Assembly (NCBI GenBank): GCA_963666365.2
Contig: CAXXNF010000002.1
Location: 2,112,001-2,176,000 of the forward strand
From: Syntrophales bacterium
Lineage (GTDB): Bacteria; Desulfobacterota; Syntrophia; Syntrophales; UBA2210
Direction: 5' to 3'
Length of the DNA stretch: 64,000 bases
Both the position numbers and the translations under genes were made by a program. Positions 57,850 to 64,000 of this stretch are shown one piece after another; the first letter of the stretch is position 1, and every line of letters starts with the position of its first letter. The notes under the pieces were generated by a model. That model searched no databases. It had not been told where the DNA came from and was given only the letters and a program-made list of their open reading frames with translations.

Positions 57850-59850
57850 ATGAAAATGGTTTTCTACTGGATCTTTGGTGTTATTGGTGTGTTCTTACTC
57901 TGCCTCACCGGTTGCGAGTCCGGGTCCGAGAGCGATAGCCTGGGTGCTTCAGATGGGAATGGCATTGCCATCTTCGCCTATAGCCAGGACTGCAATAATT
58001 ACTTTTCCAAACACGCCTACTCTCATTTGGGAGAAACGACGATGAGCGGCCAGTGGGACAGCAGCTACTACTGGGACCATATGACAAAGTTCAACGTTGG
58101 CGACCAGCAGTACATCATGGGCCACCACAAGTACGATCCCTCTACCCTGAAAGGCTCGAATGACTGGTGGATAAGGAGAATCTACAAAACCGGCGACCTT
58201 GGACAACAGACCGACAGCGGCGTGTGGTCGCACCGCTACCAGACCCTGACCGGCTGCAAGTCAGGCAACAACTCGTTTATAATTGGCCAGAGCTCTGACA
58301 CCAAGCGCTGGTTCGTTCAGCAAGTGCTGACCGGTGGCAAACTCGGAGACGAGACGTCGTCGGGTACCTGGTACGACTATTATCCTGTCGCGGTCCCGTT
58401 GGAAATGAACGGCAATACTTTCATCTATTTCCAGTCCAGCAGGGATGAGTCGAGCCGGTACTATTGGTTCATCGCCAAGCTGACTGAGACCGGACACCTC
58501 CACCAGACCGACGACGGCTACTGGAACAATCTTTATCACGCACACACGTCCTTCGAGATCGACGGCATCTGGTACATCTTCGGAATCAGAAAACCGACTG
58601 CCGAGTCAAAGGGGGTCTGGTTCATCCAGCACGTTTTTCACGATGGTACGATGGGCAACGAGATGGACAACGGCAAATGGGATTATTTCTATCAGACCAT
58701 CGCCTCATACAGGGCTGAGAACGGCAAGACCTACATTCTATCCCACAATGCGGAATACAATTTCTGGCACATTCACGAGGTGCACTCCGGCGGAACAATG
58801 GGCTCTGAGACCGACAGCGGCGTCTGGGACAACTACTGCGAATACGTTTTTCCGGTCAGCTTCAACACAGTTTACCTGCGCGACGACAATTGGATGACCG
58901 CTATGAACGATACCATCGGCCCCCGCAAGCTGATCAACATCACGCTGCCGGGTTCGCACGACGCAGGTGTAAATGAGAAGGACTACAATTTGGGGGCGGA
59001 CTGTTTTAGCGGCGCCTGTTCGTGTAACACCACCGCACAGGAAACCGACATCATCGGCCAGCTCGAACGCGGATCGCGCTACTTTGATATCCGTCCGTCC
59101 TGCATGGAAAGCAATAAAAAGGAATGGGCATCCTGGCTAACCGCACATCTTGAAGTGAACGGTTCGACAATCCTGGGCTGCCAGAGCGAATCCATGTCCA
59201 ACGTGTTTGCCGACGTCTCCGATTTTTTTGCCAACGGCGCCCATAACCAGGAACTGGTCATCCTCAAGATTTCCCATTGCATTGACGTCAATTGCGCAGA
59301 AGGACAATGTGACGGCAACGACTTTGACTTGCTCGTGTCGCACATCAAGAAAGATCTGCCTAACCTGGTTAAGTGCGACGACAATTGCAATCTGATGGAC
59401 ATGACGCTCGACGAAATTCTCGAAAAAGGGAACGTTATCGTTCTGGTTGACGAGCCTAGTGGCATTTCAGTAAGAGACAAGGCCAACGGCATCTTCTCCT
59501 GGTCCGACGACATGCCGATATACGACGAATATTCCAATACCGACGATCTGGACACCATGACCAGCGACCAACTCAGTAAGCTGAAAAACTCGCACAACCA
59601 CAAGAATAAGCTCTTTCTGCTCTCCTGGACTCTGACTATGACTGAGGATGATGCCATTGCGTGCATAATCACGAAAAACTCTATTCTGAATATGGCTTTA
59701 CAAGCGCGCGAAGCGCTCTTTCCGACGCTCATCGGCGGATGGGTCGAAAAGGGGACCATCACACAGGAGATCTATCCGAACATCCTTTACCTCGATGCGT
59801 TCCAGCAACTGGGTACGCGGGCCGCGATATACTTGAACCTTTACGATTAA
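57850..59850 (+). CDS. lipoprotein: Trp-rich repeat beta-propeller + PI-specific phospholipase C domain
   Basis: Lipobox LTGC; about six TDSG.W repeats; WM..LPGSHDAG, QLERGSRYFDIRP, ELVIL. Confidence 0.8.
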   Translation: MKMVFYWIFGVIGVFLLCLTGCESGSESDSLGASDGNGIAIFAYSQDCNNYFSKHAYSHLGETTMSGQWDSSYYWDHMTKFNVGDQQYIMGHHKYDPSTLKGSNDWWIRRIYKTGDLGQQTDSGVWSHRYQTLTGCKSGNNSFIIGQSSDTKRWFVQQVLTGGKLGDETSSGTWYDYYPVAVPLEMNGNTFIYFQSSRDESSRYYWFIAKLTETGHLHQTDDGYWNNLYHAHTSFEIDGIWYIFGIRKPTAESKGVWFIQHVFHDGTMGNEMDNGKWDYFYQTIASYRAENGKTYILSHNAEYNFWHIHEVHSGGTMGSETDSGVWDNYCEYVFPVSFNTVYLRDDNWMTAMNDTIGPRKLINITLPGSHDAGVNEKDYNLGADCFSGACSCNTTAQETDIIGQLERGSRYFDIRPSCMESNKKEWASWLTAHLEVNGSTILGCQSESMSNVFADVSDFFANGAHNQELVILKISHCIDVNCAEGQCDGNDFDLLVSHIKKDLPNLVKCDDNCNLMDMTLDEILEKGNVIVLVDEPSGISVRDKANGIFSWSDDMPIYDEYSNTDDLDTMTSDQLSKLKNSHNHKNKLFLLSWTLTMTEDDAIACIITKNSILNMALQAREALFPTLIGGWVEKGTITQEIYPNILYLDAFQQLGTRAAIYLNLYD

Positions 59851-59862
59851 CGGAGCGTGGAC

Positions 59863-60014
59863 TCAATTCCGGGGACAGACTCAATGCAGTATTTCTGCAA
59901 AAAAGGTACAATTCCGGGGACAGTATACTTAATTCAGTATTTCTGTAAAAAAGGTGACGGTATTTTTTTGCCGGCTTTCAAGGAAACCTGAGGGCCTTTA
60001 ATTAAGTATACTGT
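59863..60014. repeat. REP-like repeat cluster (AATTCCGGGGACAG family)
   Basis: Two tandem ~45-bp units; ACAGTATACTTAATT (59920) inverted at 60000-60014. Confidence 0.75.
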
Positions 60015-60130
60015 TTGAATGCATAAGTAAGAAAGATTGCAGGAAACCTCCAGGCGGGTCACAATGTTTGTAAATGCAAACTGCTGGGTCGAGATGAGTT
60101 CGCCCAGAAATGAACCACAAGGAGGTTTCC

Positions 60131-61162
60131 ATGGACAGATCTTACTACATAGGGTTGGATATTCACAAGAAGGTAATCGCATATTGTATCAAGGCCCTTG
60201 ACGGATCCTTGATTGATCAGGGAAAGATAGGGGCAGACAGGCTGGCCTTGGGAGTATGGGTGAAGGGTCTGCCGGGACCCTGGATAGGAGCTATGGAAGC
60301 GACCCTCTTCACCGGATGGGTGTACGACTTTTTGAAACCCCATGCCGTTGCCCTGAAGGTGGCTCATCCAGCGATGCTCCAGGCCATAACAGTCGCCAAG
60401 AAGAAGAATGATCGAGCCGATGCGGAAAAGATAGCCGATCTACTGCGGGTGAATCTTCTGCCTGAATGCCACATGCTCTCGGAAGAGATTCGCGAACTGG
60501 GGAGAATATTACGATATCGCAACCACATAGTTCGGACGGCAGTGAAGATTCAGAACAAGATGTCGGGCCTGCTCATGGAGGTTGGGGTCAGCTACAGCAA
60601 AAAACGCCTGCACGGCAATAAATACTTTCATGAGCTACTCGAACGGGTCGATGAGATTCCTCCTTCGGTTAATGAGCTTCTTCAGTTGAGCCGTTCCAGC
60701 TATGAGATGTTTCGCTCTTTCCAGAAGCGGCTTGTTGAGACGCTTCGTACCGACAGCCTGATCAGTGGGCGGGTGCATCGTCTCATGACCATCCCCGGAG
60801 TAGGCGAGATAACAGCTCTCACTTGGATATTAGAGATTGGCGATCCTGACCGATTCTCATCCATTCGGAAGGCAGTCAGTTACTGTGGTTTGTGCAGCGC
60901 GCAAAGGGAATCAGCGGGGAAGGAACAGCGAGGTCCCATCTCCAAGAAGAGGAACAAGCACCTGCAAACCATGCTCATTGAGGCAGCAAAGGTTGCGCCG
61001 CACTGGAACGAACAACTGGCAATCGTACATGAACGAGAATTGAAGAAGGGTAACCGGAACAGGGCAACGCTTGCCGTTGCGAGAAGGCTTGTTGCCTACA
61101 TGTTGGCCGTTGACAGGAAAGGAGCAGATTTCAATCTGCCCTCTGAAATACGGGCAGCATAA
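60131..61162 (+). CDS. IS110 DEDD recombinase/transposase
   Basis: IGLDIHK, AMEAT, KNDRADA, TIPGVG, ESAGK; RBS AAGGAGG. Confidence 0.95.
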   Translation: MDRSYYIGLDIHKKVIAYCIKALDGSLIDQGKIGADRLALGVWVKGLPGPWIGAMEATLFTGWVYDFLKPHAVALKVAHPAMLQAITVAKKKNDRADAEKIADLLRVNLLPECHMLSEEIRELGRILRYRNHIVRTAVKIQNKMSGLLMEVGVSYSKKRLHGNKYFHELLERVDEIPPSVNELLQLSRSSYEMFRSFQKRLVETLRTDSLISGRVHRLMTIPGVGEITALTWILEIGDPDRFSSIRKAVSYCGLCSAQRESAGKEQRGPISKKRNKHLQTMLIEAAKVAPHWNEQLAIVHERELKKGNRNRATLAVARRLVAYMLAVDRKGADFNLPSEIRAA

Positions 61163-61204
61163 AGCAAAAGCTGAACATATAGATCTGCCGAGAGGAAGAT
61201 CTTC

Positions 61205-61430
61205 CCGCCGGGCCTTGCCGTTCTGGGGACTGTGCTATCGGATGTAGGTATCCGTGATGCACCGGTTATTATGTTTCGAGGCCGGTGGGTTGACCCAAAC
61301 TCAATCTTCTGCAGAGGTCATGAAGGATATGGTGTAACGCGAACCTGTCTGACCTTGATACAGCAAATGGATGTCTGGTCGCATGTGATCGATTAGTGCG
61401 GACCAAAAAGGATTATAAAGATCGGGTTGC
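61205..61430 (+). ncRNA. putative bridge/seek RNA of the IS110 element
   Basis: Two stem-closed internal loops with segments matching the target (ACTGT..ACCG) and donor (ATGGATGT..CAAA) junctions. Confidence 0.65.
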
Positions 61431-61729
61431 GGCAGATGAACAAGAATAACCGCCGGGAGTCCTTCAATCGGAAAGGTCAAGGGAAATCTCCGTTTTCCCC
61501 TTGATAAAACTTATCATGGATGTCGGTATAGAAATTCACGGTTGACGAACCGGTCATTTTTGTATATTCTCTGTACTAACATACAGTTAACGACAGGCCA
61601 CGTCACGCATCTCCGGCCTCTTATTCCTCTACCGGAACCGACTCCTCAAAAACATAAAGCCTGCACAGACACCGATGCAACCCCATATTCCTGCAGGCGT
61701 GGCCTGTTTTTTCATTAAGAGGCAGGATC

Positions 61730-62332
61730 ATGACAGTACAATATGCAATTACCATCATGACAAGAAGAGACAATCGATTTGGGTTGCTGAAGAAGTGTGC
61801 CGATATTGTCACTGAAACTTTTCCCGATAAGAGCTTTAGAACCAGCGATCTGTTGAATAATGAGGACCTAACCTGGAATGAGAAAAAGATTATGAAGGAT
61901 CTGTTCGACGGCAAGTCAAGTTACATCATGACTCACCGATTTGATTTCACCAGAGAAGATGGAGACAAATGGGTCTTTGACGACGGAAAAAGACAGAGGC
62001 ATGAATTTGCCATGAAAGTCCTCAACATGATTCACTATGAAGGGACATATAAGATAGGAGAGACAGTCTATACGAGGGATTTTGATTTCATACGATCGTT
62101 AATAGGTGCCTGGAATGCGATTTTGAAACATCTGATGAAAAAGGAGCTGGGTGAAGAAGATCCCGGATATGATATCACGGAAGAGATGATGGAGCATATA
62201 TCGGATGGCCTGATGGAAAAGGTGGGGATCTTCGGGAAATTCGATTACAGTTTTGTCCGGAGGTTTCTGGAGGCACTGTCGGAATATGACGAGGCGTATG
62301 TGGAGAGGTTGATAGAGGAGGAAGAACCCTGA
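61730..62332 (+). CDS. hypothetical protein
   Basis: 200-aa ORF with upstream purine-rich RBS-like sequence; no recognised motif. Confidence 0.65.
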   Translation: MTVQYAITIMTRRDNRFGLLKKCADIVTETFPDKSFRTSDLLNNEDLTWNEKKIMKDLFDGKSSYIMTHRFDFTREDGDKWVFDDGKRQRHEFAMKVLNMIHYEGTYKIGETVYTRDFDFIRSLIGAWNAILKHLMKKELGEEDPGYDITEEMMEHISDGLMEKVGIFGKFDYSFVRRFLEALSEYDEAYVERLIEEEEP

Positions 62333-62349
62333 GCGCCCTATCGTATTAT

Positions 62350-64000
62350 CCTAAATTCCCGGCTTAATGTAACGAGGTTGGCGGGGCGATCCCCATTGCC
62401 TCATAAAGTTCGATTTGTTTCTTTGTCACTTCACCTACGCGAAGTTCATACCCCGGGTACTCAAAGCATTCAATGATGTCCAGTTCATCCAGAAGCTCAT
62501 GCATCGTATATTTTTTGAAAAGATTTCCATCTTGCATCTTCTTTTTGAGATAAGAAAGAAAAATAAGCGCGATAAATTCCACAAACAGCTTGCCGTCCAG
62601 ACTTTGATCGGAGGACACCGCCATGCGGTTGAAATTCAGTCGCTCTTTCAGATTTCCGAAGGCCTTTTCCACAAGATCCTTGTTCCGGTATATTTCCAGG
62701 GCTGCGATAGGTTCCCTGACCTCGTTGCTGAGTAACACAAAAAATCCATAATTCTTTCGTGCATCAAGAAGAGCATCCTCTCTGGCAATAACCTTTGTCC
62801 CTCTTACCGGGGTGGTGGTGACATCAAAATATTTGGCGTACAGCCTGTCGTGTTCCGGAAGGGTTGCGCCGCCTTCCAATTCCTCCTGCAGACGACAAAG
62901 CAGGGCGTTGAAGTTCTTTTCATCCTCCAATGCCCGTTCACTGTTAAAATAGAGGTGCATATACATCCGGCGTTTTCCCTTAAGAATATCGCCCTTGTAA
63001 GGACGCTCCTGAGAATAGTCCCATTCTATCTTCGTGGTGCAGGCATAAAGATCATGTTTCTGATTATAGTGTGTCCAGGTACGGAGTGAATCGCGCACAT
63101 TATCCAGTTCGGTCTTTACGAATTTCAACGACTTCTTTGCGGCAATCAGGAATTTCAAATGATTCCGGTACAGGTCGTTGATATTGTCCTCGCTGTAGAA
63201 TCCCCTGTCCATAACCAGCTTGATCTTGTCGTACCCAAAGAAATCGATGTCAGCCAGAAGGTTCTTCACTGTCTTCACATCGGGAATGTTGCCTGCAAGT
63301 TTTCGGTAGTAAAAAGGAAGATTGGATTCCTCCCCGAACAATAACGCGAGATTGATCTGCGGAAGCGGCTCATGATCCTTGTTCATCCCGTATCTGACCT
63401 GGCTTAAGCATCTGGAATAGCTCGATATGGAGGTCGTATCATAGGCCCAGTACTCTTTCTCGACTCGCCGTCTTCCCTGCAGCCGGAAAAACCGATTCTT
63501 GTCGTCTTCGGTAATAGATGCGAACAACTCACTGCTCCTCTGAGAAGGGATGTTTCTGCCGTAAGGATGCCTATGCGTGGCTGCCCATTTCGGAAAACGG
63601 CTCAAGGGGTTCCTGTCCTCCATGATGAGGTAGTATGCCGTGGACAAAATCTGTTTGTATGTGCCGGGAAAGCATTTTTTCAAATCCGCGGCAATCCCGA
63701 GCTTCTCGCCGATGGCGTCAAAAAGGTATGTTGCCCCGTAAAAACTGCGGGATACATTCTCGATAGGGACCGGACCTCTTTTATGGACTTTGTCATGATT
63801 GCCGGGATCAGTGGCAACCACCCTTTTTCTGGTCGGGATGATCTCCTTTGTCTCGGGATCAACCCGTCCGATGCATCTACGTGTGGCACGAGACTGCTTT
63901 TTCTCTTTATCCCAGTAGGATAGCGATTCATAGGCATAGGTAATTCCCGTCTGCTTGCTGGTCTGATACACAATCGCCGCCATTGAGCACCCCCCCCTTT
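62350..64000 (-). mobile_element. IS1634-family element (left end beyond window)
   Basis: Terminal CCTAAATTCCCG just past the transposase stop. Confidence 0.75.
62364..63983 (-). CDS. IS1634-family DDE transposase
   Basis: YDTTSISSYS, GNIPDV, VMDRGFYSE, YRNKDLVEKAFGNLK. Confidence 0.9.
   Translation of the reverse strand: MAAIVYQTSKQTGITYAYESLSYWDKEKKQSRATRRCIGRVDPETKEIIPTRKRVVATDPGNHDKVHKRGPVPIENVSRSFYGATYLFDAIGEKLGIAADLKKCFPGTYKQILSTAYYLIMEDRNPLSRFPKWAATHRHPYGRNIPSQRSSELFASITEDDKNRFFRLQGRRRVEKEYWAYDTTSISSYSRCLSQVRYGMNKDHEPLPQINLALLFGEESNLPFYYRKLAGNIPDVKTVKNLLADIDFFGYDKIKLVMDRGFYSEDNINDLYRNHLKFLIAAKKSLKFVKTELDNVRDSLRTWTHYNQKHDLYACTTKIEWDYSQERPYKGDILKGKRRMYMHLYFNSERALEDEKNFNALLCRLQEELEGGATLPEHDRLYAKYFDVTTTPVRGTKVIAREDALLDARKNYGFFVLLSNEVREPIAALEIYRNKDLVEKAFGNLKERLNFNRMAVSSDQSLDGKLFVEFIALIFLSYLKKKMQDGNLFKKYTMHELLDELDIIECFEYPGYELRVGEVTKKQIELYEAMGIAPPTSLH

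Follow-up and report, generated by a model that had tools for sequence, protein, structure and literature searches.

An IS110-family element of IS1111-like architecture in a Syntrophales genome, with a GT core and probable RNA target guides located by covariation

The window analyzed here comprises 64,000 nucleotides (nt) of a Syntrophales bacterium genome (GenBank assembly GCA_963666365.2, contig CAXXNF010000002.1, positions 2,112,001 to 2,176,000 of the forward strand). At 60015-61523 it contains an intact insertion sequence (IS) of the IS110 family, apparently of the IS1111 type, 1509 bp long and with a GT core at both junctions. We consider it very probable that this is an IS1111-type member with a DEDD/Ser recombinase and a guide RNA, of the kind termed seekRNA or bridge RNA, in its 3' non-coding region. 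The element ends, the core, the protein family and its catalytic residues, a conserved RNA-type structure, and covariation between guide segments and insertion flanks all support this.

The covariation comes from natural insertions. Seventy-three elements were parsed together with their flanks and 3' non-coding regions, and their guides were compared with the flanks; in the shuffle tests, flanks were permuted among elements. Two segments of the target-binding loop follow the flanking DNA. In the window, they are:

61221 to 61230, + strand: top-strand target guide UUCUGGGG plus AC, which pairs with the top strand of the core and right flank, AC being the complement of the GT core
61267 to 61274, + strand: bottom-strand target guide UAUUAU plus GU, which matches the left flank and core and predicts the left flank TATTAT-GT

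The 5' loop strand, with GGG(G)-AC at its end, reads as the core plus the right flank in reverse complement; for the window, the expected right flank is GT-CCCCAGAA or, if one U-G wobble is allowed, CCCCGGAA. When right flanks were compared with this strand at the best offset, they scored 5.80 of 8 against 4.80 for shuffled flanks (0/3000; 59 distinct pairs), and with a fixed anchor they scored 5.89 of 9 against 4.72 (0/10000; 47 pairs). On the other side of the loop, the six bases before an invariant GUUUYRAGG vary in step with the six that precede the core in the left flank. Here the score was 5.08 of 7 against 3.12 when shuffled, with a shuffled maximum of 3.88 (0/10000; 50 distinct pairs), and taking one flank for each of the 38 distinct guides gave 0/5000. 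The left-flank signal lies at positions -6 to -2, where identity is 62-88% against an expected 29-47%. Individual elements illustrate both correspondences:

L037: 5' loop guide AAAUAGGGAC, right flank GT-CCCTATTT
L073: 5' loop guide CCUUGGAC, right flank GT-CCAAGG
L057: 5' loop guide AUCCGGGAC, right flank GT-CCCGG
L066: 5' loop guide UUCCGGGG-C, right flank GT-CCCCGGAA
L037: 3' loop guide GGCGCU-GU, left flank GGCGCT-GT
L072: 3' loop guide UUUUCGU-GU, left flank TTTTCGT-GT

The agreement is not uniform across the family. Across the 47 pairs, the base opposite the core T is A in 34, U in 8, and absent in 5, and a few members have right flanks that do not match (e.g. L053, L092, and L033). The right-flank parser also mis-set the ends of two elements, L080 and L083, by a few bases. 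A model's sequence-only reading of this DNA had proposed that guide-target covariation be sought in homologs. Such covariation is present, at 61221-61230 and 61267-61274 instead of at the short words ACTGT and ACCG that the reading had named as guides. On these comparisons, the reader of the top strand would lie 5' of the reader of the bottom strand, the two overlapping on the core, which is the order of IS1111 elements and the opposite of that in IS621 (PMC11208158). Published IS1111 seekRNAs are described in the same way, with the segment that matches the top strand placed 5' of the one for the bottom strand and with target matches that overlap (Siddiquee et al. 2024, PMC11187229).

The guide segments are embedded in a structure that is itself conserved. 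An alignment of 44 diverse non-coding regions of relatives gave an RNAalifold consensus of 54 pairs, 21 of them compensatory. The tested structure retains 42 of these pairs and omits the pairings GGAC/GUUU, AUCU/GGAU, and GUC/GAC, which are invariant and link guide segments with one another or with the end. It is 96.3% paired in the 44 sequences, compared with 36-51% when the partners are slid; 21 pairs changed on both sides, and none of 500 shuffles reached it on any measure. Many pairs on the + strand are G-U (e.g. columns 17/83 and 122/203), which on the opposite strand would be C-A, and their frequency indicates that the folded strand is the + sense. The structural elements are as follows:

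61200 to 61217, + strand: 5' strand of the outer stem P1, which closes the target-binding loop and pairs with 61277-61293
61277 to 61293, + strand: 3' strand of P1, which pairs with 61200-61217
61232 to 61262, + strand: inner hairpin of the target loop, in which 4 of 4 modelled pairs changed on both sides, in up to 18 of 44 sequences; its limits, one base beyond the modelled pairs on each side, were read from the sequence
61309 to 61317 with 61354 to 61363, + strand: stem that lies between the two donor guides and contains a variable insert; 7 pairs, 5 changed on both sides
61376 to 61405, + strand: hairpin UGGUCGCA...UGCGGACCA, 3' of the donor guide; 8 pairs, 5 changed on both sides
61481 to 61499, + strand: conserved hairpin GGGAAAUCUCCGUUUUCCC, close to the right end; 6 pairs that vary little and are 98.5% paired

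The core helix of P1 has 13 pairs, is 99.3% paired, and has 5 pairs that changed on both sides. The stem GGCCTTG/CGAGGCC (61211/61277) noted in the sequence-only reading is part of this longer, covariation-supported stem (61200-61217 with 61277-61293), and the hairpin TGGTCGCA/TGCGGACCA that it drew (here 61376-61405) has compensatory changes as well. The structure divides into a target module at 61200-61293 (94 nt) and a donor module at 61294-61405. From this comparative evidence, the proposal that the right non-coding end encodes a structured guide (bridge or seek) RNA of about 200 nt (61200-61405) is well supported.

The limits of the element are set by its relatives. Three features define them:

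60015 to 61523, + strand: whole insertion sequence, with ends common to copies in other genomes, many of them at contig ends
60015 to 60028, + strand: left end, an 8-nt terminal extension TTGAATGC followed by ATAAGT (60023-60028), the left arm of a sub-terminal inverted repeat; kept in relatives
61509 to 61523, + strand: right end, ACTTAT (61509-61514) as the right arm of the inverted repeat, followed by the extension CATGGAT and the core GT; kept in relatives

Matches to the element occur in 23 of 61 related genomes, and many start at query base 1 (60015) or end at base 1509 (61523); these limits often coincide with contig ends, as expected of a multi-copy element. All 12 left junctions printed show flank-GT/TTGAATGCATAAG and all 18 right ones show CTTATCATGGATGT/flank; the letters common to them are flank-GT/TTGAAT... 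and ...ATGGATGT/flank, and GT terminates every listed left flank (61/61). Since about 30 related copies start and stop at exactly the same bases, the ends are fixed, and the limits and GT core that the sequence-only reading had assigned hold. The core copies are the GT at 60013-60014 and the GT at 61522-61523, so that the element could equally be written as 60013-61521. Terminal inverted repeats and a target duplication are absent, and a short GT core is shared by the element junction and the target, as in the IS110 family. The sub-terminal inverted repeat ATAAGT/ACTTAT is 6 bp long, perfect, and conserved in relatives, compared with a published range of 7-17 bp (PMC11208160); a longer version, ATGCATAAGT against the reverse complement of ACTTATCAT, matches at 9 of 10 positions with one indel. 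Downstream of the transposase gene, the element has 361 nt of non-coding sequence (61163-61523), compared with 116 nt upstream (60015-60130).

The host genome, 4.0 Mb in 2 contigs, holds one intact copy and one decayed copy, and pattern and tblastn scans of it returned only these two. A further 79 loci with 68-89% protein identity were found in public genomes, mostly metagenome-assembled genomes of Syntrophales and of Geobacter-like and Desulfobulbus-like organisms. The decayed copy (locus L002, G000 C2:110479-111670) is 81% identical, has an in-frame stop, and shares the left flank of the intact copy, which derives from a repetitive extragenic palindromic (REP) sequence. It ends inside the region of the RNA outer stem, at the equivalent of 61220, where REP-like repeats directly follow, and it has therefore lost both target guides. 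Another locus, L017 (G014 C2:101846-101992), is a 147-nt non-coding fragment that runs from the inner hairpin to the donor guide with no transposase within 1.5 kb; it stops exactly after an internal ATGGATGT, a mimic of the right end, and may be either a remnant or an outcome of recombination at this internal pseudo-end. Contigs of three public runs (X4, X5, and X6) carry copies that are ~98% identical to the element and have different flanks; in these copies the left-flank guide is altered by A>G at 61268, and C>T at 61283 gives a G-U pair in the outer stem.

The protein places the element in the IS110 family, as the sequence-only reading had proposed. The relevant features are:

60131 to 61162, + strand: transposase/recombinase gene, 343 amino acids (aa), with Pfam and NF033542 matches and a phmmer alignment to IS621/ISCro4 chains
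60042 to 60051, + strand: strand GGAAACCTCC opposing the ribosome-binding site, complementary to 60121-60130 at 10 of 10 positions
60121 to 60130, + strand: ribosome-binding site GGAGGTTTCC, the partner of that strand, directly before the ATG

The open reading frame (ORF) starts at ATG 60131, just downstream of an AAGGAGG ribosome-binding site, and stops at 61160-61162; a longer ORF from 60110 is unlikely to be the one used. Pfam matches to PF01548 (E = 6e-15) and PF02371 (E = 7.7e-22) are both above cutoffs, and the NCBIfam equivalog NF033542, "IS110 family RNA-guided transposase," is matched over residues 6-331 with 190.4 bits against a cutoff of 140. In phmmer alignments to the solved structures of the IS621 and ISCro4 transposases, NDRAD falls on KTDTVD and RESAG on YE-SG. 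D94 and D97 align with IS621 D102 and D105, E56 aligns with the MEAT motif of ISCro4, S261 (in RESAG) faces the IS621 YE-SG across a 1-residue gap, so that the Ser is assigned by motif, and D10 in GLDIH is assigned by motif only. We infer from these alignments a catalytic set of D10, E56, D94, D97, and S261; the published IS621 catalytic residues are D11, E60, D102, D105, and S241 (PMC11208158). With the IS621 protein, similarity could be detected in the C-terminal 140 residues only (E = 2.8e-6), and tblastn against IS4321-family transposases aligned residues 1-288 (84% of the protein) at 25.5% identity (E = 1e-9). The Ser motif GLCSAQRESAG is a variant of the IS1111 motif GL-P----S(t)G, and its S-A-G was present in 35 of the 35 relatives caught by the search pattern among the 79 loci scanned. 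Ahead of the gene, the stem between 60042-60051 and 60121-60130 has compensatory variants in relatives, GGAAGCCTCC/GGAGGCTTCC, AGAAACCTCC/GGAGGTTTCT, and GGGAGCCTCC/GGAGGCTCCC (82 left ends; at least 3 positions), which suggests that it could sequester the ribosome-binding site of the transposase and so control its translation.

The second half of the RNA would read the ends of the element itself, and two candidate donor guides and two promoter-like hexamers are relevant here:

61367 to 61374, + strand: bottom-strand donor guide AUGGAU plus GU (AUGGAUGU), identical at 8 of 8 positions to the right end plus core
61301 to 61306, + strand: candidate top-strand donor guide UCAA plus UC; UCAA pairs with TTGA of the left end, and UC lies opposite the core
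61501 to 61506, + strand: outward-facing -35-like hexamer TTGATA, 17 nt before the element end
60015 to 60020, + strand: TTGAAT, which would be the -10 of a junction promoter

The right-end match had been picked out in the sequence-only reading as ATGGATGT, and in one relative, L057, it and the right end have changed in concert (CATAGATGT with AAATAGATGT); a right end GGAAGT is uncompensated in the donor guide in 2 combinations. As a right-end donor guide, 61367-61374 is well supported by sequence comparison. The left-end match of UCAA-UC amounts to 4 nt plus the core G, and a C-to-U change in the donor UCAA accompanies the left-end change G3 to A (TTAAAT) in exactly L069, L070, and L072 (2 of 18 distinct combinations). 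UCAA is the probable left-end donor guide, with weaker support than the target guides have. The sequence-only reading had assigned this role to CAAA after the hairpin, which is not conserved; UCAA(UC) at 61301-61306 is the more likely choice. The neighboring CCAAAC (61295-61300) was tried as a left-end guide and rejected, as its variants CAAAC, CTAAC, and TAAAC do not track the left ends GTTTG, GTTAG, and GTTTA. In the 44 relatives, the letters after both bottom-strand guides are invariant, GU-UU at 61273-61276 and GU-C at 61373-61375. The UU corresponds to TT at the start of the left end, and the C to the base with which the right flank usually begins, so that each guide strand spells the post-insertion junction; a handshake-like role for these letters is speculation. 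As the sequence-only reading had stated, circularization would bring TTGATA (61501-61506) and TTGAAT (60015-60020) together across a 17-nt spacer, a spacing read from the sequence.

These observations can be assembled into a putative mechanism, in which we infer RNA production and binding, the circle, its promoter, and activity by analogy with characterized relatives. The element would excise as a circle, joining ...ATGGAT-GT-TTGAAT..., and the junction would form the promoter TTGATA-17 nt-TTGAAT, driving the recombinase gene and the RNA downstream of it. In the target module, the outer stem would close an internal loop in which UUCUGGGG-AC pairs with the top strand and UAUUAU-GU with the bottom strand, overlapping on the core. 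In the donor module, the ends of the circularized element would be read by UCAA-UC (61301-61306) on the left and AUGGAU-GU (61367-61374) on the right. Recombination of the junction by the RNA-protein complex would follow at a site NNNNNN-GT-CCCCNNNN, which in this genome would be the REP-like TATACT-GT-CCCCGGAA.

Several results weigh against this account or limit it. The shuffle tests overstate independence because they include kin elements, an effect eased by collapsing identical pairs or guides, and the parser skipped 14 of the 73 elements in the fixed-anchor test. An Rfam 15 scan of 59800-61800 on both strands returned two chance-level matches only (E ~6), and the single-sequence fold of 61163-61523 is no better than shuffles (z = -0.55). 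A promoter and terminator scan of 59900-61700 found no sigma-70-like promoter for the RNA inside the element, with counts no higher than in shuffles. The fifth base of the -35-like hexamer (61505) is T in the window and C in the other 43 of 44 aligned relatives; their TTGAC, mostly followed by A, argues that the hexamer is functional in the family and weakened in the window. No joint of 61523 to 60015 was found in contigs of runs X1, X4, X5, and X6, which thus lend no support to a circle, although contigs cannot show absence. The left-end donor guide covaries at one position only, and the common left end TAGAAT is uncompensated (3 combinations). With only one intact and one decayed copy in the genome, current activity is doubtful. 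Finally, the window copy fits its own guides poorly: its right flank CGGTATAG scores 3 of 9, among the lowest of the 47 pairs, and its left flank scores 4 of 7, near the bottom of the 50 pairs.

This last point is best considered alongside the local repeats. The relevant sites are:

59998 to 60014, + strand: left flank, the left REP half TTAATTAAGTATACT plus the core GT; the same 15-17 bases flank the second copy
61524 to 61540, + strand: right flank CGGTATAGAAATTCACG, which matches neither the guide nor the right REP half
59909 to 59935, - strand: unoccupied REP-like target 80 bp upstream, reading GAATTAAGTATACT-GT-CCCCGGAATTG

The local REP-like repeat, AATTAAGTATACT-GT-CCCC(G/T)GAA, has ~30 copies in the genome. 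The left-flank half of the element occurs in ~30 uninterrupted REP copies, where CCCC(G/T)GAA follows, and both resident copies of the element have the REP left half. Compared with the guides, the right half of the local REP fits at 8 of 8 positions with one U-G wobble, and UAUUAU matches TATACT at 4 of 6; at this level (4/6 left and 8/8 right with wobble) 30 sites in the genome fit, and none in the genome fits both guides perfectly. The sequence-only reading had restored the target as TATACT-GT-CGGTAT and called it REP-like. The target class stands, and the restored site is not a complete REP, as ~30 local copies read TATACT-GT-(C/G)CC(C/T). As observations in their own right, the REP-like units at 59864-60014 and at G000 C1:27351-27453 are composite inverted pairs with a spacer of ~60 nt that holds a terminator-like hairpin (59973-59996 in the window), and they resemble the mosaic REP arrangements of enterobacteria.

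The poor match of the window copy to its own guides could mean either that the right flank changed after insertion or that the insertion was off-target. We lean modestly toward a normal insertion into a full REP (TATACT-GT-CCCCGGAA), the right half of which was later lost or rewritten, over an off-target insertion at TATACT-GT-CGGTAT. The paralogous composite repeat at G000 C1:27351-27453 has the same 90-nt left context and continues as a REP (...TATACTGT/CCCCGGAATTG), and wherever else this left half occurs locally it is followed by (C/G)CC(C/T), never by a sequence like the window right flank (CGGTAT). The neighborhood has been rearranged, as judged from an IS1634-family element that lies 840 bp to the right and has multi-copy ends, and a few other members of the family, such as L053, L092, and L033, also have right flanks that do not match. 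Against a later change of the flank, neither flank, each searched separately, has a counterpart in 12 related genomes, with no match outside the element's own genome, so that the search gave no empty or ancestral site. A reciprocal junction was not found either, and an off-target insertion relying on the left flank and core is compatible with the data. Taken with the single intact copy and the weakened hexamer, the mismatched guides suggest that the window copy may be barely active.

Two neighboring features complete this region. The IS1634-family DDE transposase lies on the minus strand at 62364-63983 (NF033559, 314 bits), and bases 62342-62400 recur as stretches of 50-60 nt at 98-100% identity at three other places in the genome, marking a second, multi-copy IS. 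No Pfam match was obtained for the ORFs on either side (in 57850-59850 and 61730-62332), which encode 666 aa, with a lipoprotein-like N-terminus, and 200 aa.

Since flank covariation and strand-specific pairing would also be expected of a folded + strand of DNA, the flank-matching segments might instead act as DNA, either as single-stranded guides like those of IS200/IS605 or as protein-binding sites near the end. We regard this as very unlikely. Experiments on this protein family have shown that the guide is an RNA, recovered together with the transposase and needed for transposition (PMC11187229; PMC11208160), and the protein scores above the curated NF033542 cutoff. The abundant G-U pairs fit RNA better, and the architecture matches that of published seekRNAs.

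Less credible still is the guide layout of the sequence-only reading, an IS621-like loop in which ACUGU reads the left target plus core and ACCG reads CGGT, with TATACT-GT-CGGTAT as the cognate site. Both short words are present in the loop and match the window's own flanks, and the window right flank is otherwise unexplained; however, the words do not behave as guides among relatives. ACTGT (61229-61233) consists of the core complement AC and the start of the inner stem and is constant in relatives; it is kept in 14 of the 73 elements, and of the 11 with a readable left flank only 2 have ACT-GT, the others ending in TAT, TGT, AGG, or GCT. ACCG (61261-61264) is the end of the same stem and is constant in relatives with differing flanks. 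CACCGG occurs in 6 elements, of which 5 have a CCCC right flank (three distinct loci, as L035 = L004 and L041 = L005 are the same contigs) and CGGT is found in the window alone. The inner stem, itself supported by covariation, overlaps both words, and in 361 nt about 1.4 chance occurrences are expected per 4-mer and about 0.35 per 5-mer. Other segments of the loop covary with the flanks, and they do so in the opposite order to the left-target-like 5' guide and 3' right-target complement of the IS621 layout, an order that also matches the published IS1111 one (PMC11187229). On these comparisons, ACTGT and ACCG are read as chance matches, a risk for short target matches about which the sequence-only reading had itself justifiably cautioned.

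The covariation-based arrangement can now be set beside known systems, as far as the cited accounts describe them. As in the IS1111 elements for which seekRNAs are reported (ISEc11, ISPa11, ISKpn4, and ISPst6; PMC11187229), a long non-coding region lies downstream of tnp, and the sub-terminal inverted repeats carry terminal extensions, the repeat being short in the window. The same source gives transposases of 330-350 aa (343 here), a short RNA of 82-96 nt (here a stem-closed target module of 94 nt, known from sequence), REP as the target of ISPa11, and a junction promoter in the circle, which is predicted here. IS1111 bridge RNAs are also described as lying in the right end, with donor nucleotides often in a multiloop (PMC11208160), a remark that the multi-helix donor region here would fit. 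Unlike the named IS1111 elements, the window element is distant in sequence, its nearest annotated relative among those compared being IS4321 (25.5% identity over 84%), and its Ser motif GLCSAQRESAG departs from GL-P----S(t)G. It therefore appears to be an IS1111-type member by most defining features, an assignment made from architecture and pairwise alignments, to which the short inverted repeat and the variant Ser motif fit less well.

With IS621 (Durrant et al. 2024, PMC11208160; Hiraizumi et al. 2024, PMC11208158; PDB 8wt6) the element shares its recombinase layout, namely a RuvC-like DEDD domain, a coiled coil, and a Tnp domain containing the catalytic Ser. Target and donor would likewise be read by different RNA loops, each of which has a pair of guides for the two opposite strands around a 2-nt core, and a promoter is predicted at the circle junction. 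It differs from the IS621 of those accounts in that the RNA lies in the right end instead of the left, the guide order in each loop is reversed, the core is GT instead of CT, the donor part looks multi-helix instead of being a simple internal loop, and the base opposite the core T is variable. Insertion into REP sequences is also known from ISPpu9 and ISPpu10, IS110-family elements of Pseudomonas putida. ISPpu9 further resembles the present family in having a small RNA gene downstream of the transposase and extra copies of the RNA region without a transposase, which may be compared with the solo fragment in G014; both Pseudomonas elements differ in host phylum and in sequence.

We also considered a broader proposal, that the family is a compact GT-core IS1111-type system with a code of 6 + 2 + ~8 nt that departs from IS621 in three ways. 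In top-strand guides, the base opposite the core T may be dispensable (A, U, or absent); the invariant GU-UU and GU-C letters, which match post-insertion junctions, could be handshake positions on the bottom strand; and copies whose right flank is unpaired to the guide may be locked in place, because excision would need the same pairing. As a joint claim, this proposal is unlikely to hold in full.

RNA-guided recombinases of the IS110/IS1111 group are under development as programmable tools for DNA insertion, inversion, and excision, and most mechanistic knowledge of them comes from IS621-type elements. The present element belongs to this known RNA-guided family and adds no new principle to it. 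It does illustrate that guide assignment from the flanks of one copy can fail even though the element call is correct. What it yields is a well-delimited natural family, with more than 50 distinct insertions in anaerobic Thermodesulfobacteriota-type genomes, IS1111-type guide positions derived from covariation, and a corrected map for an uncharacterized GT-core family.

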